Shown one piece after another: positions 38,164 through 64,000 of a DNA stretch of 64,000 bases (position 1 is the stretch's first letter; the number at the start of each line of letters is the position of its first letter). Origin of the DNA: Eledone cirrhosa (taxonomy: Eukaryota); assembly GCA_964016885.1 (NCBI GenBank), contig OZ024756.1, forward strand, positions 24,676,001-24,740,000, written 5' to 3'. The notes beneath the pieces were generated by a model. It had not been told where the DNA came from. It saw only the letters and a list, made by a program, of their open reading frames with translations, and made no database searches. The position numbers were made by a program, and so were the translations under genes.

Positions 38164-38259
<96 letters not shown>

Positions 38260-38322
38260 GTATATATATATTTATTATATATTTGATATATATTTATCCT
38301 TATCGAGCCCTCTTTTGATTTT

Positions 38323-38361
<39 letters not shown>

Positions 38362-39229
38362 TATGTATGTATACGTACATACATATATGTATACAGACGT
38401 ACAGTAGTATGTATATATATATACATACATGCACACATATATATATATATATATGTACGTATCCGTTTACCGAACATTTATTATAATGCTCGGTTTGTTT
38501 GTAAACAAACAAAAAGCCCGAATTACGCAGTTCAGTGTTTAGGCAACCACGTCACCTTTTTGTTCAACACTGACACAGGAACGATGTACTAGTTTCGGCG
38601 TAATTCGAGGTGTTTCTTTGTTTAAAACAAACAAACCGAGCATATATATATATATATACATATATATATGTAAATATGATAATAAGGGCGTTGCGGAGTT
38701 GCAAATGGGTTACATATGAAAAAAGTTTGTCCTTCATCAGTGATCTTCCAACCATCATAGGCATTTCATCGCTTTAAAAACTATATACCTCCGGTTGGTG
38801 CGAGCAACGGCTAAAAAAAGTCGTTGGGACACGTAAATAAAGGGGACGCGAGGGTAAACAAACAAAATGGTGAAGCAACATAAAGTTAGGAATAAAGAGA
38901 CAAGTCCCAGATTTCTATGAATTTAAGTTCGGTGAAATCGTGAACGAGAGAATAAAGACCATCAAACCTGGTTGAAATGTGAGCAAGGAAGGAATTTCGC
39001 ATGTATATATATATGCTCGGTTTATATATATATATATATATATATTAAAAGGGCGTGTCAACGGCCATCCACCCAACTATGGGTTTAAAAAACCTCACCA
39101 ACCAACAATTGTCCAAGCGTGGTGAGTACGGGTACTCCCCTAACATTACCAAAACCAAACAAAAGTGTAGAAATCAACCAGGAAGGGGTTCTTCATACAG
39201 GAGTGAGATGTCCCTGGATTGGATATACG

Positions 39230-39308
<79 letters not shown>

Positions 39309-39727
39309 TTGGGGAGGGTCATATTTGTGTAATAATATTGCCAGAATTAATAACAGAACACACTCACTGTTTGGTTGGTTTTCGCTTCTGTCTTTTATAT
39401 CGGTTAACTTAATTTATTTGGTCCTCAATAGGAAACATAATAGCACCACTGACGATGTTGCAGATGTGCAACGAAAGAACTTTGTTAGACTATATATATG
39501 TGTTTGTGTCTATATTGTATCTGTATTTTTGACCGTTGGTCAGTCAATGGTAACATTGAGGACCGAATAAATTAAATTAACTGATATAAAAGACACAGAA
39601 GCGAAAATCAACCAAACAGTGAGTGTGTTCTGTTATTAATTCTGGCAATATTATTACACAAATATGACCCTCCCCAAGTATAACAATATTTGTTTCGACA
39701 CACGATTTCATATCAAAAACCTCGCAA

Positions 39728-39820
<93 letters not shown>

Positions 39821-40949
39821 TGTATGTATGTATGTATGTATGTATGTATGTATATACAAAGTCAATATCAATATAAGTTCTATATATATATATGTGCGTA
39901 AGCATATATATTATTATAAAGAATATTTTCTTAGAATCTTCAGAGAAGAAATATTAATGATGTTGCTGGAAGGTAGTCCAATCTATACAACAGCGAATGA
40001 AATTTTCCATTACTGGAATAATTATTTCTTCAGAGAAATGCCCAGAGATCAGTATACGTCGGAGTGCATGCCTTATATTTGGGGAGGGTCATATTGTTAT
40101 AATATTGCCAGAAATAATAATAAAACACACTCACTGTTTGGTTTGGATTGGTTTTCGCTTCTGTATATTTTATAACCCTATAGTTAATTTAGCTGGCAAT
40201 CAATGTTTATCATTGATCGACCAACGGTTAAAATATAGATATTAATATATATATAGTCTATCAAAGTTCTTTCATCACACACCTGTGACATCATCAGTGG
40301 TACTACATCATCAGTGGTACTATTCCTCCCGTTGTATTGTCTATTCCATTTTTATTTATTTATTTATTCTTGTCTCTGTTTGCGCATGCGTTTGTGTGTG
40401 TGTTTTCTGTTTGGTGTGTGTTCGTGTCTGAGTATATGTGTATTTGTATTCTATCTTTGCTCACTGGTGTGTTTTTATGTGTGGTTATTGTTATTGTACC
40501 TGTGTATATTTATTTATATTCATCGTAGGTCAGTATTGTGTGTTTGTGTATGGTTGTTGTTGTTATTCCATTCCTGTTTTCTGTTCAACTTTGGTTTTCT
40601 TAGTTCTATTTCAGTTGCTTCTCTGATTTGTCTACCCGTTGAGTCATTTCTATGTTTAGAAATTATTTTAATTTCTATGTTGTCTATGCAGCCGCTACGT
40701 AGAATCAAACTCTGTATCTCTCGGATACCTTTTGAGTGCGTTACCCATTACTCTATGGCGCAGCTGACCACGAATTCGGTCAAATTTAAGGGGTATGTAC
40801 AAAACAGCTTGCGGTTAGAGCTTAACATAAAGCCTAAAGCACTAGACCAGTATTCGAGAAATACGGAATTCGATCCTCCATAATGGCTGCTGGCCACTTT
40901 TTTTCATCTCCAGGTGTATTTTATCTGATTTTATAGCCATCGACTGTTG

Positions 40950-41063
<114 letters not shown>

Positions 41064-41223
41064 AGAGTCAGGACCCCGACGGCTAAGCTCCGGCCCTTTC
41101 GACAGCTAGATCCGGTGCTCAGCCGTCGGGGTCCTGACTCTTTTCCTATTACCCACTCTACTACCCTAATTATCGAGTACTCTGGTGCGTTATGGTCCAC
41201 CTGGTTTCTTACCACACCTTCTT

Positions 41224-41266
<43 letters not shown>

Positions 41267-41272
41267 CAAACA

Positions 41273-41532
41273 CAGAGTGGGATTTACGTATAAGCTAAAC
41301 AAGCTATAGCTTAGGGCGCCCACTTTCTTGAGGCCCCGAAATAATTGAAAAAAAAAACGGTGTGTACATTTCCAAAATATAAGATAAAAAAGAACTAAAA
41401 TAATGCAATAGTTTTAAACAGTTTTCTGCTTTAATATTGAAGGTTTTGCAGTTTTTATAACATTTTATAACATATAAAGGGCCCCATTATCTCAAATAGC
41501 TTAGGGCCTCATCAAATCTAAATCCGGCCCTG
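41273..41532. mobile_element. hAT-type MITE with 8-bp TSD CCCAAACA
   Basis: TSD at 41265-41272 and 41533-41540; imperfect TIRs cagagtgggattta / taaatccggccctg. Confidence 0.8.
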
Positions 41533-42631
41533 CCCAAACAGTGCGTATAAGGGAATGAAACTTTGTATTGTATTTAAAATGTTAGAAGACTTTCATCTGT
41601 GAATCGGTTAAAAGATTTTTTTTATTGTTCCTCTTTTCTACACCAGAAAGGTTTTACGATTGGTTAACAGTTGACTAAACCAGAATTGAAGTTTAAACAC
41701 GAGTGAGACTGCCTTAGTTGGGGTCATCTATTCTTTAAAAATTCTTAGATGTTGAAGTCATCGACTACAGATTTTACAACGCTGAAATATTAGCTTTCTA
41801 AAATCTAAACTATAATAAGAGCCGTGTTTGTCAGTCCGTGCGTCGTCACACTCTCTATGTTGAGGGAGGAAAATACTACTCCATTTCTCACTCACTCCCC
41901 CCCCCCCCTCTCCTCACTCTAACTAACTAAAACGTAACGTCTAGAACGAAATTACGGAGTCTTTTGGTTGTTTTGTGTGTCTGTGTGTTTGTGAAAGATA
42001 AATAGATAGGTAAACACTATTGTCACCTGACAACGCGGGAATCTTAAGTGCATGTCAGTCAACACGTTTGGAAAAAGTGTGTGTTTCTGAAACCTCACGC
42101 TTAGAAAAAGAAAAGAAAAAAATGATACAAAGTCTAGTTTGCGCCATCAACTTCTAACAACTTTTGAAGAAAAGATGACATCAATTCAAGCTTGTTCTTG
42201 TTCAAACGTGCCTTCAACTTCTAACAACGTTTCAAGCAAACATAACATCAATTACAGCTTGATTCAGTTCAAACTTTAAAGTCTGATTTATTCGTCCGTT
42301 AACCAACTTCCTGGTGTGGGGGAAAAAAAATCAAAGAATCTTTTACCGAGTCTTTTAAGCCTTTTAATTCTTTTAAGACTGGAAATTCTTAATGAAGTAC
42401 TGAAGTGAGGTATTATTTCTTTATACGTCTTGTTTTGAGCGTTTAATCATTAAAAACTTTCTTATAATTCTGTCAAGGCGGCGAATTGACAGAAAGTTTA
42501 TGACGTCAGAATGATTTATGGTATTTGTTCCGCCTCTCTGAGTTCAAATCCCGCCGAGGTTGACTTTGCTTTTCATCCTTTCGAGTTCAATAAAAAAAAA
42601 AGTACAAGTCTAGTCCTGAGGTTGATTCTTC

Positions 42632-42664
<33 letters not shown>

Positions 42665-43127
42665 TCTTTCTATCCTTTTCTGGAAGGAGTTACATATGCC
42701 GCTACTACGGCGCCGCTCAAACACATAGTATTGTCACAATGCTTTCAAATTTGCCTTGAAACTCCAATTCATACGAACACTGTACACACAAAAGCACACA
42801 ACACATACACACTCATTCGGAAAACACTTACACACATATACATTCGCACACATATACATTCGCACAAATACACATATGCACAGTAAGACACACATACACA
42901 CACACCACACACACAGTACACACACAAACACACACAAATACACACACAGACAGTACACAGCATGCATATACACCCACATTTACACACACAGTACACAGAC
43001 AGTACACACACAGTACAGACACAGTGTGTACACACACACACACACACACACATAAATAGTACATATACACACGCAATGTCAACATATTGATCGATGTTAA
43101 TAATCTATCAATACATTTATATTACAG

Positions 43128-43170
43128 GTAGCTTCAACGTCAGCTTTCTGATTGATGGACCATTTGGCAG
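43128..43170 (+). CDS. PKHD1L1: PKHD1L1-like exon (GSFNVSFLIDGPFGR)
   Basis: ttacag| ... |gtaaga; phase 1-2; resembles GHHNVSFILDNDYGR. Confidence 0.9.
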
Positions 43171-43329
43171 GTAAGACCATCATTTTCGAGATCGTAAAGT
43201 AAGGCTTGGATTCTGCAGGTTTCCACTCCCAACTCGGGCCGGCGGGGCTGAACCAAGGGGACGATAAAAAGAAAGCCGGCCCGACCATCTTCCCGTTCTA
43301 TGGAGGTAAACCCCTCATCTAGGATACCA

Positions 43330-43762
43330 AAAGCAGCGGCACTTTCTCCAGCGGCAACCTGGTGCAGTCTGCACCTGACCCAAGGAAGCCAAATGCAGCG
43401 ACACTTTCTCCAGCGGAAACCTGGTGCAGTCTGCACCTGACCCAAGGAAGCCAAATGCAGCGGCACTTTCTCCAGCGGCAATCTGGTGCAGTCTGCACCT
43501 GACCCAAGGAAGCCAAATGCAGCGGCACTTTCTCCAGCGGAAACCTGGTGCAGTCTGCGACTGACCCAAGGAAGCCAAATGCAGCGGCACTTTCTCCAGC
43601 GGCAACCTGGTGCAGTCTGCGACTGACCCAAGGAAGCCAAATGCAGCGGCACTTTCTCCAGCGGCAACCTGGTGCAGTCTGCGACTGACCCAAGGAAGCC
43701 AAATGCAGCGATGCAGCGACACTTTCTCCAGCGGCAACCTGGTGCAGTCTGCACCTGACCCT
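43330..43762. repeat. 62-bp GC-rich minisatellite, about 7 copies, inside an unclassified GC-rich segment (about 43180-44035)
   Basis: Unit ccaaatgcagcggcactttctccagcggcaacctggtgcagtctgcacctgacccaaggaag. Confidence 0.92.
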
Positions 43763-44309
43763 GGCTCTGCCGAGGAGGGCAAACTCTCAAAATAACAGTC
43801 GCTCTCCGACAGGTTGAGCCCGTAGCAGTGGAGACTTCTGGTGTCCTTGACCAGAAAACCACCTCACTACTCACCACCATCGGCATGGAGTTAGCTACCC
43901 GCAGGTGTGATCCTCGCAAGCTAGAATGTCTCTTCCAACGCGTCTCCCTCTCCATCTACCGGAACAACGCCTTCTCTATTCTGTCCGCCGGGGCTGCGGG
44001 ATGAAAAACCACCCGTAGAGTGGTTTTTCTGATAGTTACTCTAATAGCATGTGTAGTGTACATATTTATATTATATGCAAATATACATGCATGTAGATAT
44101 GATATGTCAACTAAAATCGTAATTGAGAATATGCACAGAAATTGAACGAAGACACTGTTACACTGTCTTCTGTAATCAGTAAAGTAATCCATGATGCATT
44201 CAAAAAAGACGATATTATATATAAACTGCATAAAGGATTCTCGGTAAGAAAGTGTCCGAATCAAATTTTGTCTTTTCTTTCTTGCAAACATAAATATCGA
44301 TTAGTTTAT

Positions 44310-46881
44310 ATCATATTACTGGGTAGTGTAGGCGGCGAATTGGTGAATCGTCTATTAGTGTATAGTGTAGGTGGCGAATTGGTGAATTGTCTATTACTGG
44401 GTAGTGTAGGCGGCGAATTGGTGAATCGTCTATTAGTGTATAGTGTAGTTGGCGAATTGGTGAATTGTCTATTACTGGGTAGTGTAGGTAGCGAATTGGT
44501 GAATTGTCTATTACTGGGTAGTGTAGGTAGCGAATTGGTGAATTGTCTATTACTGGGTAGTGTAGGTAGCGAATTGGTGAATTGTCTATTACTGGGTAGT
44601 GTAGGTGGCGAATTGGTGAATTGTCTATTACTGGGTAGTGTAGGCGGCGAATTGGTGAATTGTCTATTACTGGGTAGTGTAGGTAGCGAATTGGTGAATT
44701 GTCTATTACTGGGTAGTGTAGGTAGCGAATTGGTGAATTGTCTATTACTGGGTAGTGTAGGTAGCGAATTGGTGAATTGTCTATTACTGGGTAGTGTAGG
44801 TAGCGAATTGGTGAATTGTCTATTACTGGGTAGTGTAGGTGGCGAATTGGTGAATTGTCTATTACTGGGTAGTGTAGGCGGCGAATTGGTGAATTGTCTA
44901 TTACTGGGTAGTGTAGGTGGCGAATTGGTGAATCGTCTATTACTGGGTAGTGTAGGTGGCGAATTGGTGAATTGTCTATTAGTGTATAGTGTAGGTGGCG
45001 AATTGGTGAATTGTCTATTACTGGGTAGTGTAGGCGGCGAATTGGTGAATTGTCTATTACTGGATAGTGTAGGTGGCGAATTGGTGAATTGTCTATTAGT
45101 GTATAGTGTAGGTGGCGAATTGGTGAATTGTCTATTACTGGGTAGTGTAGGCGGCGAATTGGTGAATTGTCTATTAGTGTATAGTGTAGGTAGCGAATTG
45201 GTGAATTGTCTATTAGTGTATAGTGTAGGTGGCGAATTGGTGAATTGTCTATTACTGGGTAGTGTAGGTAGCGAATTGGTGAATTGTCTATTACTGGGTA
45301 GTGTAGGTGGCGAATTGGTGAATTGTCTATTAGTGTATAGTGTAGGTGGCGAATTGGTGAATTGTCTATTAGTGTATAGTGTAGGCGGCGAATTGGTGAA
45401 TTGTCTATTAGTGTATAGTGTAGGTGGCGAATTGGTGAATTGTCTATTACTGGGTAGTGTAGGCGGCGAATTGGTGAATTGTCTATTACTGGGTAGTGTA
45501 GGCGGCGAATTGGTGAATTGTCTATTAGTGTATAGTGTAGGCGGCGAATTGGTGAATTGTCTATTACTGGGTAGTGTAGGTAGCGAATTGGTGAATTGTC
45601 TATTACTGGGTAGTGTAGGCGGCGAATTGGTGAATTGTCTATTACTGGGTAGTGTAGGCGGCGAATTGGTGAATTGTCTATTACTGGGTAGTGTAAGCGG
45701 CGAATTGGTGAATTGTCTATTACTGGGTAGTGTAGGTGGCGAATTGGTGAATTGTCTATTACTGGGTAGTGTAGGTGGCGAATTGGTGAATTGTCTATTA
45801 CTGGGTAGTGTAGGTGGCGAATTGGTGAATTGTCTATTACTGGGTAGTGTAGGCGGCGAATTGGTGAATTGTCTATTACTGGGTAGTGTAGGTGGCGAAT
45901 TGGTGAATTGTCTATTACTGGGTAGTGTAGGTGGCGAATTGGTGAATTGTCTATTACTGGGTAGTGTAGGCGGCGAATTGGTGAATTGTCTATTAGTGTA
46001 TAGTGTAGGCGGCGAATTGGTGAATTGTCTATTACTGGGTAGTGTAGGCGGCGAATTGGTGAATTGTCTATTAGTGTATAGTGTAGGCGGCGAATTGGTG
46101 AATTGTCTATTACTGGGTAGTGTAGGTGGCGAATTGGTGAATTGTCTATTACTGGGTAGTGTAGGTAGCGAATTGGTGAATTGTCTATTACTGGGTAGTG
46201 TAGGCGGCGAATTGGTGAATTGTCTATTACTGGGTAGTGTAGGTAGCGAATTGGTGAATTGTCTATTACTGGGTAGTGTAGGCGGCGAATTGGTGAATTG
46301 TCTATTAGTGTATAGTGTAGGCGGCGAATTGGTGAATTGTCTATTACTGGGTAGTGTAGGTGGCGAATTGGTGAATTGTCTATTACTGGGTAGTGTAGGT
46401 AGCGAATTGGTGAATTGTCTATTACTGGGTAGTGTAGGCGGCGAATTGGTGAATTGTCTATTAGTGTATAGTGTAGGCGGCGAATTGGTGAATTGTCTAT
46501 TACTGGGTAGTGTAGGCGGCGAATTGGTGAATTGTCTATTAGTGTATAGTGTAGGCGGCGAATTGGTGAATTGTCTATTACTGGGTAGTGTAGGCGGCGA
46601 ATTGGTGAATTGTCTATTACTGGGTAGTGTAGGCGGCGAATTGGTGAATTGTCTATTAGTGTATAGTGTAGGCGGCGAATTGGTGAATTGTCTATTACTG
46701 GGTAGTGTAGGCGGCGAATTGGTGAATTGTCTATTAGTGTATAGTGTAGGTGGCGAATTGGTGAATTGTCTATTAGTGTATAGTGTAGGTGGCGAATTGG
46801 TGAATTGTCTATTAGTGTATAGTGTAGGTGGCGAATTGGTGAATTGTCTATTAGTGTATAGTGTAGGTGGCGAATTGGTGA
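44310..46881. repeat. 39-bp minisatellite, about 66 copies, continuous with the 5' end of a SINE
   Basis: Unit tattactgggtagtgtaggcggcgaattggtgaattgtc with variants; last unit runs into SINE body. Confidence 0.97.
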
Positions 46882-47626
46882 AGTCGTTAGAACGTCAGAT
46901 AGAAAGCTTTGCGATATTCGTTCTGGCTCTCTGCTCTCTGAGTTCAAATCCCACCGCAGTCAACTTTGCCTTTCATCCATTCTAGATCGATAAAAAATGT
47001 ATCAGTCTGGTACTGTGGTTTATTTTTCCTCTATATTTTTTTCTCATTTAGGTTTATTTCAGTTTTTATCGTTACTCGTGTTCATAGATTAAATACCAAT
47101 ACCAGTCATATTTTGGGGATTTACAGTTTGTCATCAAATCATTACCTCACTCCCCTTCACCATGCCCTCAGTCTTCTCAAAATTATATGACCTTTATACG
47201 AGAAATAATTGTTTCTACTTTTGGCACAAGGCCAGCAATTACCAAGTGCATTACTGGTACTTTATTTTATCGACCCCGTAAGGATGAAAGGCAAAGTTAA
47301 CCTTGGCAGGATTTGAACTCAGATCATAAAGGGACGTGACTACGCTGGAAAGCATGTTCGACCCTCTACCGATACTGCCAATTCACCGCCCTAAATACGA
47401 GAAATAAGGATTTTTAATTTAGACACAAGGCCAACAATTTAAGGGAAGGGATATGTCAATTAAATCAACCACACTGCATTACCGATACCTTATTTTATCG
47501 ACCCTGTAAGGATGAAAGACAAAGTAGACCTTGGCGGGATTTGAACTCAGACCGTACCAATCTAATCAACCTTCCAATACTAGAAATAGAGAAGAAAATT
47601 TTAATGATTTTCATGTTTCTTTTCAG

Positions 47627-47697
47627 ATCCCGAAAGAGAAAAGAGGAGTTCTTCCAAAGCAGAGCAGGAAAACTATATCACGTCCAGACATATGCAG
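47627..47697 (+). CDS. PKHD1L1: PKHD1L1-like exon (SRKRKEEFFQSRAGKLYHVQTYA)
   Basis: tttcag| ... |gtaagg; phase 2-1; conserved QTYA. Confidence 0.9.
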
Positions 47698-47832
47698 GTA
47701 AGGGAGGAGTCTGGAGAGTTTTGAAGGGCTAGCAGGAGTGTGAAGGGGCCAGAAGGAGCCATAAGGGACCAGTAGATTTCAATGTTATTGGGTACTATAT
47801 CACGTATGATTATATATGTGTTTCTCTGTGAA

Positions 47833-47897
<65 letters not shown>

Positions 47898-48564
47898 ATA
47901 CTTCGGGAGGGTCATGTTGCCAATAAGAAACACACGCACAAGTTGCTTTTACTACAATTTATTATAAATTTAAAAAAAATTTTTAATTTATAAATTTCCG
48001 GTTGGTTGGTTGGTTGGTTCCACAACCGGACGGTTGTTCATATATTGTCAAAGTTCTTTCGTCACACATTCTGTGACCTCTTCTACTGTATATACATATA
48101 TATATATATACTATAAAGTATGTCCATAGAATCATTTGATAATATATATAATGAACTGGGTAATTGCTGGCCTTGTGCCTAAAGTAGAAACAAATATATA
48201 TACACCATTTCCTCTCCCAATTAGCATAATTAGCCACACAAAAAATCAATTAGACCAGGCTATAAGATTAAAAGGTACCTATGAAGAAATAATAGATAAA
48301 TAAACGACAGCAATCTCTTCGCGACCAACCGCTATAGAATATTTACCCACCATTTCAATAGCACGTGGAAATCGATTAAATAAATATATCGTCAACCATA
48401 CACAATTATGTATAAAATTAAAGTTAGAAGAAAAATGCATATACACATACCAGCATTACGCTTCTACCCCTTGGGGTTTCATTCGCTTTTGGAAATATCC
48501 TATTAAGGATAAAATTCCTTATATATATTCCTTATATATATTCCTTAATTCCTTATATATATAC

Positions 48565-48759
48565 AGTAGAAGGAAGATGCAGTAGAGGAAGACCACGAAA
48601 AACATGGGCGGAGGTGGTGAGAACGGACCTCAAATCGCTAAAACTTACGGAAGAGATGACGAAGTACCGTGACAAGTGGAGAGATGCTGTGCTGAATAGA
48701 ACACGTCCCACCCTTGCAAGCAGGGAAAAGTGGACTTAAATGATGAGGATAATGAGGAT

Positions 48760-48760
<1 letters not shown>
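48565..48760 (+). mobile_element. RTE-like LINE 3' end with (GAT)n-like tail
   Basis: R.RGRPRKTW.EVVR.DL...RDKWR; 3' gcaagcagggaaaagtggacttaaatgatg. Confidence 0.65.
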
Positions 48761-48795
<35 letters not shown>

Positions 48796-48867
48796 ATCCT
48801 CATTATCCTCATCATTTATATATATATATATGTATGTATGTGCGCTTGTATAACTATACACATATAT

Positions 48868-48920
<53 letters not shown>

Positions 48921-49249
48921 GTTTGTATATGTATAATAAAGCCAAAACAATGCAGGTATGGACATAGAATAAAGAATGCAAATGCAAAAGATATTGTTGA
49001 CAATTAGTCTTTTACCTTAGATTTATTTAAATGTCCTTAATTTTCGAGATAATATCTCTTCTTCGGAGGGAAGTAAAGCTGTTAAACCAGTGTTCTAAAT
49101 AGCTTGCCAAGTCATGCTGACAGGAAATGGTATAGAGTATCTGTTCTATCTCTAATGTCAAAGAGTTAAGGAATTTTAGCCTGATAATGAGGTTGAGCCC
49201 CATTATCAGGCTAAAATTCCTTTAGTCAAAAATACGGTGAAAGCTATTC

Positions 49250-49329
<80 letters not shown>

Positions 49330-49341
<12 letters not shown>

Positions 49342-49622
49342 TGAGGATGTCTGTTTGTGAGTGTGTGAGTTTGAATCCCTAAAACTCGAGAAGCACCCAA
49401 CCGACTGTTTTCAAACTTTACACATCTAATACTTATGTTTCAGGGAGTGTTCTGAGCAAAAAACATTTCAAATGTTCAATGCCCTAGGGACCGAATTAGG
49501 CGATTTAGCGATCTCTCTCTATAATTCTTAGTCTTTCTCTTTTTAGATAGATACATACGTCGCGCCCTTATAATAATATGTCTGTATGTCTGACTGTCTG
49601 CAATACGTCACTTCCCTGAGGA

Positions 49623-49680
<58 letters not shown>

Positions 49681-50061
49681 TGTGTGTGTGTGTGTGTGTG
49701 TCTGTTAGTTTGAATTCCTAAAACTCGAGAAGTATCCAACCGACTTTTTTCAAACTTTACATGTGTATTACTTATGTTTCAGGGAGTGTTATGCACATAA
49801 ATTCAATTTTTTGATCCCCTAGGAGGTGAAAAACTGCGTTTTTTTTCAGGTTTTTAGGAATTTTTTGAGGCGTTACGTCAGACTGATTTCCTTGATTATG
49901 TATTAGTCAGTCTCTTCTTCATGCCGTGAGCAATGAAAATCGAACTTTTTTATGGCCTAGGGCCCGCATTAGGTGAAAAAGTTCATTTTTTCAACTTTTT
50001 AAGGCTTTTTTGAGGCGTTCCAAAATACCTTATAGCGTGCAACGCCGGGTACCACTGCTAG
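49330..50061 (+). mobile_element. Non-autonomous Helitron-like element with an internally duplicated 5' segment
   Basis: Starts tatataaaactgaggatgtctgt, repeated near 49617; ends gcgtgcaacgccgggtaccactgCTAGT. Confidence 0.6.
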
Positions 50062-50070
50062 TATAATATA

Positions 50071-50135
<65 letters not shown>

Positions 50136-50317
50136 TATATATTATATATATATATTGGTATCACCCTAACTATATATACGTATATATTGGTATCACCTTC
50201 ATTATATATACGTACATATTATATTGGTGTATCCTCCTCTATTTATATGTATTTCCATTGAAATCATCGAAGTAAGGATTGTTGACTATTTATGTTCCTC
50301 GGGTGTTTCCATTTCAG

Positions 50318-50428
50318 AAATTGAATCAGTTCACCCTAGCGAGGGCAGCGTTCTAGGAGGAGCTTCCCTGACCATTAAAGGAAAGAACTTTGATGAAACA
50401 ACAGTTAAGGCCGAGGTATTTGTAGGAG
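50318..50428 (+). CDS. PKHD1L1: PKHD1L1-like exon, IPT/TIG (EIESVHPSEGSVLGGASLTIKGKNFDETTVKAEVFVGG)
   Basis: tttcag| ... |gtaggg; phase 1-1; TIG motif P..GS..GG..LTI.G..F. Confidence 0.95.
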
Positions 50429-50853
50429 GTAGGGTTATGTAAATTTTCTAGTCTTGTTTGTTAACATTTATCAAAAAACTTCCCATCATAATATAATTTT
50501 AGAAACTGTATTAAGTTATGTTCCAAACACTAGCTTTAATAATAAGAAAATTTGTTATATTACTACATACCTCCAAATTCTTGATTATTTTAAAAACTAT
50601 TTGAAAATCAGAGCAGTATCTTTCATTAGAAATATGTCAGCAAAATGGTAAAAGTGTATATATTTATCTAAAAAACTTTTATCATAATTTTATCTAAGAA
50701 CTTTTGTTAAGCTATGTTCCAAACACCAGCTTAATAATGAGAAAATTTGTTGTTTTTCAAATACTTGATTATTTTTAAAAATCGTATGTAGTATCTTTTA
50801 TTGGAAATATGGTAAGAAAATGGTTAAATGATGATTTGTTTTTCATTAAAAAG

Positions 50854-50946
50854 GTAAACGGTGTGTGATCACATCCAAAGTAACAGACGATACCATCATA
50901 TGTGATGTAGCTTCAATACCAGACGACATGCCATCGATACATGCAG
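50854..50946 (+). CDS. PKHD1L1: PKHD1L1-like exon (KRCVITSKVTDDTIICDVASIPDDMPSIHAG)
   Basis: aaaaag| ... |gttagt; phase 1-1; second half of TIG (C...VT...I.C). Confidence 0.85.
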
Positions 50947-51174
50947 GTTAGTGACATTATTTTGGCAGAATCGGTAGAGCGTTGGACACCATGCTTTGTA
51001 GCATAGAGTTATGGCCCTTGGCGTTCTGATTTCAAATCCCGCCAAGGTTAACTTTGCCTTTCATCCTTACGTAGTCGATAAAAGAAAGTACCAGTGATAC
51101 ACTGGGTTATCGCTGGTCTTGTGGCAAAAGAAGAAACAATTATTTACTATTCTGTAGTGGTAGTGGTAATGGTG

Positions 51175-53686
<2,512 letters not shown>

Positions 53687-53767
53687 TAGTACTATAACTT
53701 AGTATCCCTGAAATATATATAACGAAATAAATTATGATGCTATAGTGATATATTTTCCATTTATTAC

Positions 53768-53814
<47 letters not shown>

Positions 53815-53819
<5 letters not shown>

Positions 53820-54228
53820 ATGAATAAAACAATGAAACAGTTCCTTATATTAAACAAAAAAAGTTCATTATTTAACGATCGTTTCTAGGATATATATGTG
53901 TTAGAATTGGCATGCATATTCAACAGATCTATGTACAAAATTATACAAAATTATACAAACTATCAAGATTAAATATACATACCAAACACACATATATGCC
54001 GTCTTCAGAAATAATGAAATATTTCATTATTTCTGAAGACGGCATATATGTGTGTTTGGTATGTATATTTAATCTTGATAGTTTGTATAATTTTGTATAA
54101 TTTTGTACATAGATCTGTTGAATATGCATGCCAATTCTAACACATATATATCCTAGAAACGATCGTTAAATAATGAACTTTTTTTGTTTAATATAAGGAA
54201 CTGTTTCATTGTTTTATTCATTATTTTT
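53815..54228. repeat. Near-perfect 410-bp palindrome centred near 54020
   Basis: Identical 62-aa ORFs on both strands; centre gaaatatttc with no spacer. Confidence 0.95.
54025..54175 (+). ncRNA. Hammerhead ribozyme core with greatly extended stem II, mirrored on the minus strand
   Basis: CAUUAUUU-CUGAAGA-(about 116 nt)-GAAA-CGAUCG-UU^-AAAUAAUG. Confidence 0.65.
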
Positions 54229-54369
54229 TTAATATTTTATCTTGACTCTGTATTCCGTTTATCTTTCACCGAAAGTGATTTTTCATTGCATCTCTTCTTT
54301 CCATGATATCCGGACTACATTGAGTTCTTCATACGGATTGGACACTACCGTAAACTCTTGGTAGATTTA

Positions 54370-54419
<50 letters not shown>

Positions 54420-54465
54420 AAGGAAAAGCGAAGTAGTTTCAGATGTTCAAGTCCTTTAATAATAA

Positions 54466-54540
54466 TGCTGTGATATATATTTCAATGACGACACTGGCCA
54501 CACTGTTCTGTGTGCGAGTGTCGTGTCATCATCAGACAGC
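54466..54540 (-). ncRNA. Minimal hammerhead ribozyme
   Basis: Minus strand GCUGU-CUGAUGA-UGACACGACACU...AGUGUCGUCAUU-GAAA-UAUAUA-UC^-ACAGC. Confidence 0.78.
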
Positions 54541-55181
54541 TTGTTACATAATAAGGTTATGTTTCCGAGGCAATCTAAATTGAATCGACATGGGAACAGA
54601 TGAAGTTCGTGCTTTTGGGTTTTTCATCCGTTCCCTTGTGAGTACCAATTCACCCCCACCGGTCTGCGCAAGCGCATGTCCGAAGGAAGTTGACCATTAA
54701 CCACCGCCGATTTCAACGAAATTCGCTGTCAGTTCACCCTCTCAGCCAAAACAATGGCCCACCTATGCCCTACCAAAGTTTACTGCTACCCATCACTACT
54801 GTGGCAGTCAGCCGAAAGCCAGAGGGGATGGGAGGGTGTTAGTTTTTATAGGTCATAATACTACCTTTCACTAAGCGTTGACAGTAAGACTGACCATCAA
54901 CTCATAAGGGAAAATAAACTTAATTCTAGGTACCATGGTTTTACATTGGAAGTTAATAGTGAGAGTTGGAAATAAAAATTTAATTTTTAAGGAAAAAGGG
55001 GAAGAGAGGAAAAAAACAAATATTTCAAATTATTTAGATGAATTATTTATTAATATCATTCATATTATACACCAGAGAACTTGCCGAGTGCTTCGAATCT
55101 GTTATAAATATATATATTTGTTGAATTACCAACAAATTAAATATCCCTTTGCTTATATATATATATGTGTATGTGTGTGTT

Positions 55182-55272
<91 letters not shown>

Positions 55273-55624
55273 TAATATCTCTTCTTCGGAGGGAGGTAAA
55301 GCGGTTAAACCAGTGTTCTAAATAGCTTGCCAAGTCATGCTGACAGGAAATGGTATACCATTTCCTGTCAGCATGACTTGGCAAGCTATTTAGAACACTG
55401 GTTTAACCGCTTTACTTCCCTCCGAAGAAGAGATATTATCTCGAAAATAAAGGACATTTAAATATATATATTTAAATGATTAGAATACTGGAGCGTGTTT
55501 GAGTCAAACACCCTCTTCGTATTATAGAAATGACAGTAAAAGGTATAGCTCAATGCAGTTAAACAGAGCCAAAAAATTAAGAGAGTAAAACAAAGAATCC
55601 TTTAATACATCAAAAGTTTTTATT

Positions 55625-55664
55625 AGCCGACAATGTTTCGTCCTATTAAGGACTCATCAGGGCA
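55625..55664 (-). ncRNA. Canonical minimal hammerhead ribozyme
   Basis: Minus strand GCC-CUGAUGA-GUCCU/AGGAC-GAAA-CAUUG-UC^-GGC. Confidence 0.85.
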
Positions 55665-56002
55665 ATCAAAACAACAAGAGGTAATATCGGCAGATACAAG
55701 CCAGAAACTCTGAAGAATATGGAGTGTACATACACTAATGTCTTACAAAGATATACGATAATAAAAATGAAAATAAAGATAAAAATAATAAAAATATATA
55801 ATAACTAAGGATGTAGATAACATTAAGAACCATATTACAAATATAGTCCAAAACCACCAACCTAAATCTAAACAAATTTGGTTATATACAGCAGGAATTA
55901 TATATAACACAATATAATACATTATAATAATAATATATTTATACCAACATTAAAAATTCCAAATTAAAAATCAAAAGGTACAATATATACATGTATATAT
56001 GT

Positions 56003-56045
<43 letters not shown>

Positions 56046-56779
56046 ACAATACACATATCTATGTTCTATTACACAGAAATTAAGCCCTATTAGAAGTTTG
56101 AATATTAAAAATAAGCATGGTAATAGTGAAAATAATACTAATACATCTACCCAATATACATGAGGCAATAATATGATATAATTACAAGAAACACATATAA
56201 CAAATAATAAACAACAAAATTATATAATTCAATACAATATAATAAAGTAGAATAGATAATCCCCGGTTAATTTACAGAAACAATATAGATGTCACAATGA
56301 AATACAATGATAAAATGTTAACATTATGTTAACAAGTACCATAAGCAATATATACAAAATGATTCATACTGGGTTACATAATAAATGAGGAAATATAAAT
56401 CATATAATACTCAAAAAAACTATAATGGTACAGGGAAAAATTGTGATGTTACAGAAAAGATATGATGTTACAGAAAAAAATATACAGACATCTCACATGA
56501 TATGTAAAGTCTAAATATCATAATGTTACATATTACAATATTAAAAATATATATATATATATATATGTAAAGTTATATTTAAAATTGTTGGGTTACAAAA
56601 CTAGACTAAAATCAAATGAAGTTGATGTTTATTACGGTATGTCGAATATATTTATCTATAAAACTGTTTATATTGTATTTTGTCTGATGAAGGCATAGCA
56701 TATTGTTAATATGATATCCCCGAAATATATATAATGAAATAAATATGGTTTTATAAATATAGTTTTCCATTTATTTAAT

Positions 56780-56867
<88 letters not shown>

Positions 56868-56980
56868 TCCCTATCTATCTATCACTCTATCTCTCTCTTT
56901 GTCTCTTTCTATCTTTATCTATCTATCTATCATCCATCTATCCCTTTATCTCTCTCTCTCTCTATCTATCTCTCTCTCTC

Positions 56981-57027
<47 letters not shown>

Positions 57028-57050
57028 ACCACTCTGTCTGTGTGTTACAG

Positions 57051-57307
57051 GAAACCGAGGTATGAAAGTGGAGAGCTGGAATTTCTCATTAAATTCCCTT
57101 TCCAAAGTACGATCCTATGATGGGAACAATTCTGGTTACGAGCAGCACTGGAGTGAGAATGGTAAATACGAAACGAGCAGTGACCGAAAAAGTATTCGAA
57201 TGTCAGGATTTTTGTTTCCTATCTACACTGGCAAACATTTCCTCAGATTAAGTAGTAATGGACCGTCACAGATTTGGTTGAGCAAGAACGAGAGTAAAGA
57301 ATTCTTG
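57051..57307 (+). CDS. PKHD1L1: PKHD1L1-like exon, PA14-like region ([11 protein letters not shown]...[12 protein letters not shown]...[13 protein letters not shown])
   Basis: ttacag| ... |gtaaga; phase 1-0; resembles GGRGLKLEVWN...RFSGFL. Confidence 0.92.
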
Positions 57308-57489
57308 GTAAGAAACTGTCTGTATCGAATCTTCTATCTACTTTCTAGCAAATGTAAATATCAACTGCTTTATGTCATTCGTTGACAGAACGTCTGCTAA
57401 TTCCACCCAAATTATGTTAACTATCAAAGGTGGACTGGGTCTTAAAACCAGTCCAGTCACACTGGCCACACTTGCTAACACGCTACCAG

Positions 57490-57850
57490 GAGTATTTTAC
57501 TGCTCAGCTAGGGTGACACTAGTTAACTGGCTACTGAGGGCCAGGTGCTCAGCTAAGGTGATTCTAACTAACAGACTGTTGAGAGCCAGAGGTGTGTTTT
57601 CACTGCTCAGCTAAGGTGACAATAACTAACAGACTGTAGAGGGCCAGAGGTATGTTTTCACTGCTCAGCTAGGGTGACGCTGACTAAGATTGCTGAGGGC
57701 CAGAGGTGTTGTTTCACTGCTCAGCTAAGGTGACATAAACTAACAGACTAATGAGGGCCAGAGGTGTGTTTTCACTGCTCAGCTATGGTGACACTGACTA
57801 ACAGACTGTTGAGGGCCAGAGGCGTGTTTTCACTGCTCAACTAAGGTGAC
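57490..57850. repeat. About 58-bp degenerate minisatellite, about 6-7 copies
   Basis: gccagaggtgtgttttcactgctcagctaaggtgac...actaacagactg at 57585, 57643, 57699, 57757, 57815. Confidence 0.88.
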
Positions 57851-57876
57851 ATTTATCTTTATATTTGTTTATTCAG

Positions 57877-57920
57877 CGTCGTTCTGAGAATGTCGAAGTT
57901 GATCTGATCAAAGACAAAAG
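57877..57920 (+). CDS. PKHD1L1: PKHD1L1-like short exon (RRSENVEVDLIKDKR)
   Basis: attcag| ... |gtaaaa; phase 0-2 bridges the neighbours; resembles RSDDIHLQKGKE. Confidence 0.8.
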
Positions 57921-58244
57921 GTAAAAAATCAATCAGTTTTCTACACCTTTAACTTTATCACTCACTACGTCATGTTGTTGTCATTGTTGTTGTTAAGTAG
58001 CTGATATTATTGTGGCTATTATTGTGTTTGTGGTTGTTGTGAGTGTTATTGTAGCTGATGGTGTGACTGTTATTCTATCTGTTGTTATTGTTATTGTAGC
58101 TGCTGTTGTTTCGGTTGTTATTGTTGCAGCTGTTGTTGTGGTTGTGTTTGTGGTTGTTATTATAGCACTCATCATTGATCTTTCTAGAAATAATGTCTAA
58201 CCCTTAGCTCCTCTGACGAAGGTGCATTTTCTTTTATATTCTCT

Positions 58245-59321
58245 ATTTCTCTCTCCATCTCTCAATCCTCTATTCCAACTACTCCCTCTCTATCTATCTA
58301 TCTCTCACATACCCCCTCTCTCATCTATTCCAGCTACCTTCTCTCTATCTCTCACACTCTCCTCTCCCTCTCTCATCGATTCCAGCTAATTTCTCTCTAT
58401 CTCTCACACTCTCCTCTCCCTCTCTCATCTATTCCAGCTACTTTCACTCTATCTCTCACACTCTCCTCTCCCTCTCTCATATATTCCAGCTACTTTCTCT
58501 CTATCTCTCACACTCTCCTCTCCCTCTCTCATCTATTCCAGCTACTTTCTCTCTAGCTCTCACACTCTCCTCACCCTCTCTCATCTATTCCAGCTACTTT
58601 CTCTCTATCTCTCACACTCTCCTCTCCCTCTCTCATCGATTCCAGCTAATTTCTCTCTATCTCTCACACTCTCCTCTCCCTCTCTCATCTATTCCAGCTA
58701 CTTTCTCTCTATCTCTCACACTCTCCTCTCCCTCTCTCATCTATTCCAGCTACTTTCTCTCTATCTCTCACACTCTCCTCTCCCTCTCTCATCTATTCCA
58801 GATACTTTCTCTCTATCTCTCACACTCTCCTCTCCCTCTCTCATCTATTCCAGCTACTTTCTCTCTATCTCTCACACTCTCCTCTCCCTCTCTCATATAT
58901 TCCAGCTACTTTCTCTCTATCTCTCACACTCTCCTCTCCCTCTCTCATCTATTCCAGCTACTTTCTCTCTATCTCTCACACTCTCCTCTCCCACTCTCAT
59001 ATATTCCAGCTACTTTCTCTCTATCTCACACACTCTCCTCTCCCTCTCTCATCTATTCCAGCTACTTTCTCTCTATCTCTCACACTCTCCTCTCCCACTC
59101 TCATCTATTCCAGCTACTTTCTCTCTATCTCTCACACTCTCCTCTCCCACTCTCATCTATTCCAGCTACTTTCTCTCTATTTCTCACACTCTCCTCTCCC
59201 TCTCTCATCTATTCCAGCTACTTTCTCTCTATCTCTCACACTCTCCCCTCCCTCTCTCCTCTATTCCAGCTACTTTCTGTCTATCTCTCACACTCTCCTC
59301 TCCCTCTCTCATATATTCTAG
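58245..59321 (+). repeat. 52-bp pyrimidine-rich minisatellite, about 20 copies, ending at the 3' splice site of exon 59322
   Basis: Unit ctactttctctctatctctcacactctcctctccctctctcatctattccag; AGs at 59165, 59217, 59269 and the real acceptor at 59321. Confidence 0.95.
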
Positions 59322-59487
59322 GTACTACATGGAGATTTTATATGAAAACAAATACTCCCGCTCTACTCCAATTGTGCTGGCAAAGATGTTCAGTAGGACT
59401 TCCTCTGTGACTCGCTCCCAGACTGGTTTTGCTATAAACACCAAACAAAAGATCATACTGAAAACAACCTTCACCAATGAGACAATG
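59322..59487 (+). CDS. PKHD1L1: PKHD1L1-like exon, last in window (YYMEILYENKYSRST...QTGFAINTKQKIILKTTFTNETM)
   Basis: ttctag| ... |gtaagt; phase 2-0; resembles YYIEIL...QTGDAVNEEQ. Confidence 0.92.
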
Positions 59488-62400
59488 GTAAGTAGTGTCA
59501 GGTTAGGGTAGCTAAAGACCCTGGGTTAGAGAAGCAATGAGACAATGGTAAGTAGTGCCAGGTTAAGACAGCTAAAGACCCTGGGTTAGAGAACCAATGA
59601 GACAATGGTAAGTAGTGTCAGGTTAAGACAGCTAAAGACCCTGGGTTAGAGAAGCAATGAGACAATGGTAAGTAGTGCCAGGTTAAGACAGCTAAAGACC
59701 CTGGGTTAGAGAACCAATGAGACAATGGTAAGTAGTGTCAGGTTAGGGCAGCTAAAGACCCTGGGTTAGAGAACCAATGAGACAATGGTAAGTAGTGCCA
59801 GGTTAAGACAGCTAAAGACCCTGGGTTAGAGAAGCAATGAGACAATGGTAAGTAGTGTCAGGTTAGGGCAGCTAAAGACCCTGGGTTAGAGAACCAATGA
59901 GACAATGGTAAGTAGTGTCAGGTTAGGGCAGCTAAAGACCCTGGGTTAGAGAACCAATGAGACAATGGTAAGTAGTGCCAGGTTAAGACAGCTAAAGACC
60001 CTGGGTTAGAGAAGCAATGAGACAATGGTAAGTAGTGCCAGGTTAAGACAGCTAAAGACCCTGGGTTAGAGAAGCAATGAGACAATGGTAAGTAGTGTCA
60101 GGTTAGGGCAGCTAAAGACCCTGGGTTAGAGAACCAATGAGACAATGGTAAGTAGTGTCAGGTTAGGGCAGCTAAAGACCCTGGGTTAGAGAACCAATGA
60201 GACAATGGTAAGTAGTGCCAGGTTAAGACAGCTAAAGACCCTGGGTTAGAGAAGCAATGAGACAATGGTAAGTAGTGCCAGGTTAAGACAGCTAAAGACC
60301 CTGGGTTAGAGAACCAATGAGACAATGGTAAGTAGTGCCAGGTTAAGACAGCTAAAGACCCTGGGTTAGAGAAGCAATGAGACAATGGTAAGTAGTGTCA
60401 GGTTAGGGCAGCTAAAGACCCTGGGTTAGAGAACCAATGAGACAATGGTAAGTAGTGCCAGGTTAAGACAGCTAAAGACCCTGGGTTAGAGAAGCAATGA
60501 GACAATGGTAAGTAGTGTCAGGTTAGGGCAGCTAAAGACCCTGGGTTAGAGAAGCAATGAGACAATGGTAAGTAGTGCCAGGTTAAGACAGCTAAAGACC
60601 CTGGGTTAGAGAAGCAATGAGACAATGGTAAGTAGTGCCAGGTTAAGACAGCTAAAGACCCTGGGTTAGAGAAGCAATGAGACAATGGTAAGTAGTGTCA
60701 GGTTAGGGCAGCTAAAGACCCTGGGTTAGAGAACCAATGAGACAATGGTAAGTAGTGCCAGGTTAAGACAGCTAAAGACCCTGGGTTAGAGAAGCAATGA
60801 GACAATGGTAAGTAGTGTCAGGTTAGGGTAGCTAAAGACCCTGGGTTAGAGAACCAATGAGACAATGGTAAGTAGTGTCAGGTTAGGGTAGCTAAAGACC
60901 CTGGGTTAGAGAACCAATGAGACAATGGTAAGTAGTGCCAGGTTAGGGCAGCTAAAGACCCTGGGTTAGAGAAGCAATGAGACAATGGTAAGTAGTGTCA
61001 GGTTAGGGCAGCTAAAGACCCTGGGTTAGAGAAGCAATGAGACAATGGTAAGTAGTGCCAGGTTAAGACAGCTAAAGACCCTGGGTTAGAGAACCAATGA
61101 GACAATGGTAAGTAGTGTCAGGTTAGGGCAGCTAAAGACCCTGGGTTAGAGAACCAATGAGACAATGGTAAGTAGTGCCAGGTTAAGACAGCTAAAGACC
61201 CTGGGTTAGAGAAGCAATGAGACAATGGTAAGTAGTGTCAGGTTAGGGTAGCTAAAGACCCTGGGTTAGAGAACCAATGAGACAATGGTAAGTAGTGTCA
61301 GGTTAGGGTAGCTAAAGACCCTGGGTTAGAGAACCAATGAGACAATGGTAAGTAGTGCCAGGTTAGGGCAGCTAAAGACCCTGGGTTAGAGAAGCAATGA
61401 GACAATGGTAAGTAGTGTCAGGTTAGGGCAGCTAAAGACCCTGGGTTAGAGAAGCAATGAGACAATGGTAAGTAGTGTCAGGTTAGGGCAGCTAAAGACC
61501 CTGGGTTAGAGAAGCAATGAGACAATGGTAAGTAGTGCCAGGTTAAGACAGCTAAAGACCCTGGGTTAGAGAACCAATGAGACAATGGTAAGTAGTGTCA
61601 GGTTAGGGTAGCTAAAGACCCTGGGTTAGAGAACCAATGAGACAATGGTAAGTAGTGTCAGGTTAAGACAGCTAAAGACCCTGGGTTAGAGAACCAATGA
61701 GACAATGGTAAGTAGTGTCAGGTTAGGGTAGCTAAAGACCCTGGGTTAGAGAACCAATGAGACAATGGTAAGTAGTGTCAGGTTAGGGTAGCTAAAGACC
61801 CTGGGTTAGAGAACCAATGAGACAATGGTAAGTAGTGTCAGGTTAGGGTAGCTAAAGACCCTGGGTTAGAGAACCAATGAGACAATGGTAAGTAGTGTCA
61901 GGTTAGGGCAGCTAAAGACCCTGGGTTAGAGAACCAATGAGACAATGGTAAGTAGTGCCAGGTTAAGACAGCTAAAGACCCTGGGTTAGAGAAGCAATGA
62001 GACAATGGTAAGTAGTGTCAGGTTAGGGCAGCTAAAGACCCTGGGTTAGAGAACCAATGAGACAATGGTAAGTAGTGCCAGGTTAAGACAGCTAAAGACC
62101 CTGGGTTAGAGAAGCAATGAGACAATGGTAAGTAGTGTCAGGTTAGGGCAGCTAAAGACCCTGGGTTAGAGAACCAATGAGACAATGGTAAGTAGTGCCA
62201 GGTTAAGACAGCTAAAGACCCTGGGTTAGAGAAGCAATGAGACAATGGTAAGTAGTGCCAGGTTAAGACAGCTAAAGACCCTGGGTTAGAGAACCAATGA
62301 GACAATGGTAAGTAGTGTCAGGTTAGGGCAGCTAAAGACCCTGGGTTAGAGAACCAATGAGACAATGGTAAGTAGTGTCAGGTTAGGGTAGCTAAAGACC

Positions 62401-64000
62401 CTGGGTTAGAGAACCAATGAGACAATGGTAAGTAGTGTCAGGTTAGGGTAGCTAAAGACCCTGGGTTAGAGAAGCAATGAGACAATGGTAAGTAGTGCCA
62501 GGTTAAGACAGCTAAAGACCCTGGGTTAGAGAAGCAATGAGACAATGGTAAGTAGTGCCAGGTTAAGACAGCTAAAGACCCTGGGTTAGAGAACCAATGA
62601 GACAATGGTAAGTAGTGCCAGGTTAAGACAGCTAAAGACCCTGGGTTAGAGAAGCAATGAGACAATGGTAAGTAGTGCCAGGTTAAGACAGCTAAAGACC
62701 CTGGGTTAGAGAACCAATGAGACAATGGTAAGTAGTGCCAGGTTAAGACAGCTAAAGACCCTGGGTTAGAGAAGCAATGAGACAATGGTAAGTAGTGCCA
62801 GGTTGAGACAGCTAAAGACCCTGGGTTAGAGAACCAATGAGACAATGGTAAGTAGTGCCAGGTTAAGACAGCTAAAGACCCTGGGTTAGAGAAGCAATGA
62901 GACAATGGTAAGTAGTGCCAGGTTGAGACAGCTAAAGACCCTGGGTTAGAGAACCAATGAGACAATGGTAAGTAGTGCCAGGTTAGGGCAGCTAAAGACC
63001 CTGGGTTAGAGAACCAATGAGACAATGGTAAGTAGTGTCAGGTTAGGGCAGCTAAAGACCCTGGGTTAGAGAACCAATGAGACAATGGTAAGTAGTGTCA
63101 GGTTAGGGCAGCTAAAGACCCTGGGTTAGAGAAGCAATGAGACAATGGTAAGTAGTGTCAGGTTAGGGCAGCTAAAGACCCTGGGTTAGAGAACCAATGA
63201 GACAATGGTAAGTAGTGCCAGGTTAAGACAGCTAAAGACCCTGGGTTAGAGAACCAATGAGACAATGGTAAGTAGTGCCAGGTTAAGACAGCTAAAGACC
63301 CTGGGTTAGAGAACCAATGAGACAATGGTAAGTAGTGCCAGGTTAAGACAGCTAAAGACCCTGGGTTAGAGAACCAATGAGACAATGGTAAGTAGTGCCA
63401 GGTTAAGACAGCTAAAGACCCTGGGTTAGAGAACCAATGAGACAATGGTAAGTAGTGTCAGGTTAGGGCAGCTAAAGACCCTGGGTTAGAGAACCAATGA
63501 GACAATGGTAAGTAGTGCCAGGTTAAGACAGCTAAAGACCCTGGGTTAGAGAAGCAATGAGACAATGGTAAGTAGTGCCAGGTTAAGACAGCTAAAGACC
63601 CTGGGTTAGAGAACCAATGAGACAATGGTAAGTAGTGCCAGGTTAAGACAGCTAAAGACCCTGGGTTAGAGAAGCAATGAGACAATGGTAAGTAGTGCCA
63701 GGTTAAGACAGCTAAAGACCCTGGGTTAGAGAACCAATGAGACAATGGTAAGTAGTGCCAGGTTAAGACAGCTAAAGACCCTGGGTTAGAGAAGCAATGA
63801 GACAATGGTAAGTAGTGCCAGGTTGAGACAGCTAAAGACCCTGGGTTAGAGAACCAATGAGACAATGGTAAGTAGTGCCAGGTTAGGGCAGCTAAAGACC
63901 CTGGGTTAGAGAACCAATGAGACAATGGTAAGTAGTGTCAGGTTAGGGCAGCTAAAGACCCTGGGTTAGAGAACCAATGAGACAATGGTAAGTAGTGTCA
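59473..64000 (+). repeat. 60-bp minisatellite, more than 75 copies, starting inside exon 59322-59487 and running off the window end
   Basis: Unit accaatgagacaatg-gtaagtagtgtcaggttagggcagctaaagaccctgggttagaga, exact 60-bp period. Confidence 0.98.

Follow-up and report, generated by a model that had tools for sequence, protein, structure and literature searches.

Background

Tandem repeats that span an exon boundary have been described in amphioxus and in human genes. The amphioxus "mirages" (Adh3, the globins BflGb6 and BflGb9, troponin C and PGBD5) cover the 5' or 3' boundary of an exon, are unstable in length and, where examined, leave the mRNA normal, according to the passages of PMC3087553 and PMC3902484 used here, which are also our only sources for the Adh3 case. 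In human, the portions of PMC1557585 used here describe minisatellites whose first unit spans the donor in F7, 6-16, CBS, LMNB2 and PDGF; minigenes carrying the variable number tandem repeat (VNTR) of F7 IVS7, with its 37-bp unit, choose the most upstream donor, and F7, LMNB2 and PDGF use the authentic donor only. The 25-bp VNTR in intron 18 of human ABCA7 includes a splice donor, and use of its second donor leads to a premature stop (extracts of PMC5954066). Here we analyze a 64,000-nucleotide stretch of Eledone cirrhosa DNA (contig OZ024756.1 of assembly GCA_964016885.1; hereafter, the window), in which one coding exon, exon 14 of a predicted fibrocystin-like gene, lies between a minisatellite that repeats its acceptor and another that repeats its donor.

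Our preferred explanation, to which we assign a probability of roughly 0.7, is that the two arrays are independent, tolerated mirage repeats, removed with the introns through the exon-proximal splice sites. The anatomy, the coding frame and the use of the first donor in one read contig are established; the evolutionary steps we infer. The author of an earlier note on this DNA knew of no described system of this form. For each array taken singly, a statement that none exists is wrong, as the amphioxus mirages (passages of PMC3087553 and PMC3902484) and the human cases (portions of PMC1557585 and PMC5954066) attest. In the open-licence literature, excluding the original Adh3 paper, we found no report of a single exon with an array at either end; the open-licence literature likewise yielded no report on genome-wide enrichment of arrays at junctions, and the parts of PMC10078293 and PMC12783039 used here have no bearing on junction-spanning units. 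All statistics below are confined to the window, itself a post-hoc choice out of a very large scan.

Anatomy of the two arrays

The exon and its flanking arrays are as follows.

58245..59326, + strand: acceptor-spanning minisatellite with a pyrimidine-rich 52-bp unit (Tandem Repeats Finder, TRF; in-register AGs)
59322..59487, + strand: exon 14, coding, 166 nt, phase 2 to 0 (mapped exon chain, PA14 profile, contig of run X4)
59473..64000, + strand: donor-spanning minisatellite with a 60-bp unit (TRF, donor motifs, contig of run X3)

Both arrays are head-to-tail tandem repeats with units of minisatellite length. TRF places the upstream array at 58314-59326 (period 52, 19.5 copies, 95% matches), and decayed copies extend further left to about 58245, its exon-distal end. 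Twenty AGs stand in register along it, the first ending at 58333 and the others following in steps of 52, and the twentieth, at 59321, is the predicted acceptor of exon 14. This acceptor reads TAG/GTACT (the slash marks the junction), and the upstream copies read CAG/CTA (18 of 19) or CAG/ATA (1 of 19), so that CAG is kept in all 19. The unit consists of 47 intron bases and about 5 exon-start bases, 4 of 5 of which match exon 14; with so few exon bases, it spans the boundary narrowly. Each full unit also holds a pyrimidine tract and a branch-like CTCAC with its A at -32.

On the other side of the exon, TRF reports an array at 59473-63997 (period 60, 75.4 copies, 96% matches), the unit of which is made of the final 15 bases of exon 14 and 45 intron bases. 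It contains 76 ATG/GTAAGT donors exactly 60 nt apart, the first GT lying at 59488, and this 9-mer is identical in 76 of 76 copies. The 75 full units fall into 11 variant types. As the array continues past the end of the window, 76 copies is a lower bound. The 52-bp and 60-bp units show no relationship: compared without gaps in every rotation and on both strands, they agree at 21 of 52 positions at best. A single low-complexity match of 39 nt aside, neither recurs in the rest of the window. The anatomy given in the earlier note, with about 20 copies of a 52-bp unit in register with the acceptor and at least 75 copies of an unrelated, donor-containing 60-bp unit, each amplifying a splice signal of the same exon, is therefore confirmed by the counts of 20 AGs and 76 donors and by the best match of 21 of 52.

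The arrays have opposite purine/pyrimidine skews, the upstream one being CU-rich and the downstream one purine-rich, which raises the question of whether they pair in RNA and loop the exon out, causing skipping or formation of a circular RNA. A duplex of three units from each array is predicted at -65.8 kcal/mol; however, 95 of 150 and 91 of 150 shuffled sequences pair equally well or better, and we rejected inter-array pairing as an effect above composition. We regard looping out by this route as extremely unlikely.

Two further observations concern the upstream array. A 373-codon open frame passes through it into exon 14, which calls for caution on the part of annotators, and reads are expected to mis-map. 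Separately, sense-strand TC-rich repeats lie within 400 nt upstream of 3 of the 14 acceptors of the gene (15872-16180, 56866-57050 and 58245-59321), and the 52-bp unit was probably derived from a TC-rich tract of this kind.

Read evidence

Read contigs came from 4 of 7 listed runs and cover 59255-59565 only (311 bases); no run is recorded as RNA. Runs X1 and X3 represent one sample, possibly the assembly's own, and X4 a different one; summed contig depth is not taken as copy number. Contigs of X1 and X3 contain both units head to tail at depths of up to 310, the depths of pieces from the leftmost part of the examined stretch being 4-12, and a 90-nt X3 contig (depth 178) holds more than one donor unit. 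The arrays thus exist in reads. That they are nevertheless an assembly artifact, or were wrongly joined to exon 14, is in our view very improbable. Such an error would be compatible with the lack, in X1 and X3, of any contig over the exon interior (59332-59463) or bridging exon and array, although coverage gaps prove nothing; X1 and X3 may also derive from the assembly's own sample, and the restriction-site-associated DNA (RAD) run X5, from another sample, has 0 reads at 59255-59565. Against it stand the head-to-tail contigs themselves, the sharing of the final 15 bases of exon 14 by the donor unit and the structured variation among units.

The one contig that bears on splice-site use comes from X4 (227 nt, depth 3.3). 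It is identical to 59335-59487 and then leaves the genome sequence at the donor, continuing into a tail of 74 letters that does not begin with GT, the first 14 letters of which are absent from the window and which, read by eye, has no stop in its first 10 codons. This is the spliced-looking pattern of a junction at the first of the 76 donors, and minor forms are possible. Of the canonical junctions, whose exclusive use the earlier note had named as a refutation of its proposal, this one contig shows use of the donor.

Sequence variation and a proposed origin

Mean pairwise identity is about 96% within each array. In the donor array, 6 of 60 columns vary, and the 9-nt donor would escape all of them with a probability of 0.36; in the acceptor array, 13 of 52 columns vary, and the corresponding value for the AG is 0.56. 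The splice motifs are conserved no more than expected by chance within the arrays, with no sign of selection. Among the 19 full acceptor units, the one next to the exon diverges most (3 differences versus 0-2). Overall, the acceptor array shows concerted evolution with a divergent edge, with its interior homogenized, the exon-adjacent unit divergent and the distal units decayed, and this combination resembles the concerted evolution with excluded edges described for mirages in passages of PMC3087553. Higher-order structure in the donor array is weak: the longest repeated block is 6 units, which 56 of 2000 shuffles reach.

Under tolerance as mirage repeats, the starting events would have been two single duplications, one of 52 nt spanning the acceptor and one of 60 nt spanning the donor. 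The mRNA would remain unchanged if the exon-proximal site were chosen, that is, the 5'-most donor, as in human F7, and the exon-proximal acceptor by exon definition; because the mRNA was unchanged, we propose, selection did not remove the duplications. The copies would then have expanded and homogenized outward into the introns by ordinary minisatellite turnover, and any leakage to later donors would meet an in-frame stop and be cleared by nonsense-mediated decay (NMD). We favor this course of events because the X4 contig leaves the genome sequence at the first donor, the motifs appear unselected, later donors are followed by stops, and local copies are not enriched at the junctions of this gene (P=0.23, see below).

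The host gene

The predicted gene that contains exon 14 comprises the following features.

6873..59487, + strand: host gene, fibrocystin-like, incomplete at both ends, 14 predicted exons (ab initio scan, phase, open frame)
6873-6953, 10629-10770, 12277-12385, 14197-14254, 16181-16274, 33313-33366, 37003-37070, + strand: predicted exons 1-7
43128-43170, 47627-47697, 50318-50428, 50854-50946, + strand: predicted exons 8-11
50318..50428, + strand: exon 10, TIG/IPT domain (PF01833, E=2e-7, above cut-off)
57051..57307, + strand: exon 12, 257 nt, PA14 match (PF07691, E=6e-4, below the Pfam curated cut-off)
57877..57920, + strand: exon 13, 44 nt, phase 0 to 2, upstream splice partner of exon 14

We selected the exons among ab initio candidates, guided by their phases and by a likeness to fibrocystin-L. 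Joined together, the 14 exons encode 463 aa in a single stop-free frame, AG/GT is present at 28 of 28 junctions, and the phases of exon 14 are compatible with exons 57051-57307 and 57877-57920. A PA14-repeat profile, constructed with 87 PA14-like segments taken from 24 proteins that a search had returned, matches across the exon 13/14 junction, scoring 41.9 bits with exon 14 and 37.7 without it, and the maximum over 200 shuffles of the exon-14 peptide was 39.0; the PA14-like match ends within the first part of exon 14. Several stretches of each of the 24 proteins match exon 12, which is where all their matches within the window lie. We take exon 14 to be coding because its phases fit, the 463-aa frame is open and the PA14 match crosses the exon 13/14 junction. 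The support for that junction is the protein profile.

Pfam gave no match for 3 of 5 first-scanned pieces or for 4 further exons. In searches for orthologues among proteins of up to 2000 aa, none of the candidates (35, 2 and 8 per search) passed, a PDB search returned 0, and an Atlas search produced one weak match at 0.76. As in fibrocystin (PKHD1) and fibrocystin-L (PKHD1L1), a TIG/IPT domain directly precedes PA14, at similar positions: the TIG lies near residue 240 and PA14 near residue 308 of the incomplete chain, and the part of PMC13755561 used here, a domain table for the fibrocystin family, places IPT3 at 259-335 and PA14 at 322-485. No orthologue was retrieved, and the assignment consists of two Pfam matches and the resemblance to fibrocystin-L. 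The additional IPT repeats, the G8 and PbH1 domains and the membrane span expected of the family would fall outside the window. The naming therefore stops at "fibrocystin-like", which is as close as the present evidence appears to allow.

Splice-site choice and the extra sites

Several observations weigh against the view that the arrays are simply tolerated. On the donor side, the evidence consists of a single contig (depth 3.3), and its run is not recorded as RNA; the contig begins 13 nt inside exon 14, so the acceptor side is uncovered, and assembled contigs drop rare forms. Among the human genes, 6-16 and CBS splice at two proximal pseudo-sites as well (portions of PMC1557585), and skipping of ABCA7 exon 19 rises with VNTR length, 3.2-fold between the longest and the shortest allele pair (extracts of PMC5954066). 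The pseudo-acceptors look capable of being used. The three nearest score 4.3-6.4 versus 2.0 for the real acceptor (rough weight matrix), an AG/C start occurs in 2 of the 14 exons of the host gene, and accessibility is predicted at 0.81-0.91 for six tested copies versus 0.66 for the real acceptor. Furthermore, every third pseudo-acceptor up to 780 nt, 5 of the 19 in all, keeps the reading frame without a stop, so the products of these 5 would escape NMD. Lastly, arrays placed uniformly at random would rarely produce such an arrangement: with 5 intragenic arrays on the collapsed gene, the probability that at least two fall on junctions is 0.009, and that both ends of one exon carry arrays is about 3e-4.

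The remaining 14 pseudo-acceptors lead to a stop, and all later donors bring an in-frame TAG 8 codons after the end of exon 14; skipping of exon 14 (166 nt) is a frameshift. Two accounts of how the extra acceptors might be silenced were rejected: disabling by the change at +1, given the AG/C starts used elsewhere in the gene, and structural masking, which was not seen, the copies being predicted more accessible than the real site. Since the pseudo-acceptors look competent, we infer that, if the real acceptor dominates, its position relative to the exon decides the choice.

These points bear on the idea that array length alters splicing, either as a side effect, as in ABCA7, or as a selected dial working through decoy sites for U1 and U2AF, and on the routes by which it might do so, namely skipping of exon 14 or stop-containing leakage that tunes gene dosage; in addition, use of every third acceptor could lengthen the protein by inserts of 52 aa rich in Ser and Leu. 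The apparent competence of the pseudo-sites, the stop-free frames after 5 of 19 acceptors, the stops after all later donors and the length effect in ABCA7 would all fit. On the other hand, the sole transcript-like contig is canonical at the donor, the splice motifs show no excess conservation, the inserts would fall within the predicted PA14 domain and break it a few residues after the last matched segment begins, and in F7 minigenes stronger downstream donors failed to compete (portions of PMC1557585). We judge both the influence of length and these routes to be unlikely. The copy-number-tunable modulator suggested in the earlier note found no support, given the X4 contig at the first donor and motifs that are not preferentially conserved; it is unlikely rather than refuted, in view of the length-dependent skipping in ABCA7.

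Chance, clustering and other arrays of the gene

Other arrays in the window are as follows.

1-476, decaying towards 590: 44/51-bp minisatellite, continuing past the window start
43327-43761: 62-bp unit, 7 copies, within a 271-codon minus-strand frame (43140-43955, - strand)
44314-46882: 39-bp unit, 66 copies, strong G skew, mid-intron
57490..57852, + strand: older 58-bp minisatellite, 84% matches, third array of the cluster around exon 14 (TRF)

The low probabilities under uniform placement are what a junction-biased or coupled mutational process would predict, in which, for instance, transcription- or spliceosome-linked DNA breaks seed minisatellites at exon edges while the arrays themselves remain neutral; the third array, which ends some 25 nt away from the acceptor of exon 13, would also suit it. 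The probabilities rise to 0.18 (at least two on junctions) and 0.036 (both ends) when the local cluster of three arrays (57-59.6 kb) is allowed for. The three minisatellites lie within 2.6 kb, and 3 of the 5 intragenic arrays span no junction. At the same score, local copies were found at 2 of 28 junctions, both of exon 14, versus 39 of 1200 random intron positions (P=0.23), where the intron controls count any local duplicate, including dispersed-repeat neighbors, and not only high-copy arrays. None of the 26 other junctions has a local copy, even an old or decayed one (scores 5-17; control median 12). The two nulls, array placement and junction-copy count, disagree. With 26 of 28 junctions bare, an enrichment at P=0.23, a clustered null at 0.036 and a window picked post hoc, biased seeding seems improbable to us, and the earlier note's suggestion that minisatellites are seeded at exon edges is not upheld within this gene. 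The meeting of both arrays on one exon is likely the product of a local minisatellite cluster and post-hoc selection of the window.

The arrays at 44314-46882, 43327-43761 and 57490-57852 were rejected as junction-copy arrays, as none spans a junction; the earlier note had thought that the arrays at 44310 and 57490 might fit the same pattern, and they do not, the former being mid-intron, about 745 nt from the closest junction, and the latter stopping short of exon 13. The 57490-57852 array is rich in branch-point-like motifs (9 YTRAY in 400 nt) and may repeat a branch region without the AG. The 44314-46882 array is open in three frames of 860-950 codons and is probably non-coding, and the 43327-43761 array starts 157 nt after the exon 8 donor. 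The 1-476 array, at the window start, is separated by 6.4 kb from the first mapped exon downstream; its unit holds a 7/9 donor-like motif, a level that the 58-bp array reaches without an adjoining exon, and the array could represent a donor mirage belonging to an exon beyond the window start.

Other elements in the window

The stretch at 19738-23584 consists of 791-bp inverted repeats (98.9%) around two adjoining open reading frames of 233 and 307 aa (20448-22073), for which Pfam gave no match.

The AT-microsatellite landscape of the window appears octopus-like. The 19738-23584 stretch resembles a Penelope-type element. Intron 10 (425 nt) is mostly two diverged copies (72%) of a 190-nt unit at 50466-50828, which span no junction. 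Long inverted repeats in 51177-53686 (750 bp, 91%) and 37291-38100 (326 bp, 99.4%), together with an almost perfect palindrome of 430 bp at 53806-54235, are probably fold-back elements or resemble miniature inverted-repeat transposable elements (MITEs). Remnants of intronic non-long-terminal-repeat (non-LTR) retrotransposons at 7280-8728 and 24594-25202 give weak RVT_1 and zf-RVT matches below cut-off, and a 435-bp direct duplication (98.6%) occurs at 27926/29718.

Discussion

Seeding and splicing effects could also be combined: a process linked to exon definition or to co-transcriptional splicing would found arrays at both ends of an exon, and the copy number of these unstable decoys would then set the level of skipping, of degradation and of in-frame 52-residue inserts. 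We consider this combination quite improbable; if it were true, such exons would carry a heritable, possibly somatically variable splicing dial. New biology would be indicated only if double-ended exons were enriched genome-wide or if splicing tracked copy number.

Under our preferred explanation, tolerated mirage repeats, the locus offers a natural test of splice-site choice, with 20 near-identical acceptors and 76 identical donors, that can be read from cDNA alone. Exon definition predicts use of the exon-proximal copy on either side of exon 14. First-AG scanning or intron definition predicts use of the distal acceptor at 58333, which would give an intron of 413 nt versus 1401 nt.

Compared with the described systems, the locus is in most respects familiar. 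Like the amphioxus mirages, as presented in passages of PMC3087553 and PMC3902484, the arrays have boundary-spanning units, duplicated AG or GT signals, homogenized interiors and divergent edges. Unlike them, they occur in a different animal group and, on the acceptor side, include only about 5 exon bases; they are also longer, with 20 and at least 76 copies versus 2-7 in the globin and PGBD5 mirages of those passages, which contain no case of arrays at both ends of one exon. The resemblance to the human donor VNTRs in the portions of PMC1557585 used here lies in the identical pseudo-donors that follow the authentic one and in splicing at the donor furthest upstream, seen here in one contig; those VNTRs have 5-25 copies on the donor side only, whereas here there are at least 76 on that side and arrays on both. 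As in ABCA7 (extracts of PMC5954066), a kilobase-scale VNTR contains the donor, and use of a later donor would give a premature stop. The ABCA7 unit starts at the GT and is described without exon bases, whereas the donor unit here includes 15; length-dependent skipping has been demonstrated for ABCA7. The arrays of exon 14 are a large, two-sided example of the known but little-studied class of mirage minisatellites.

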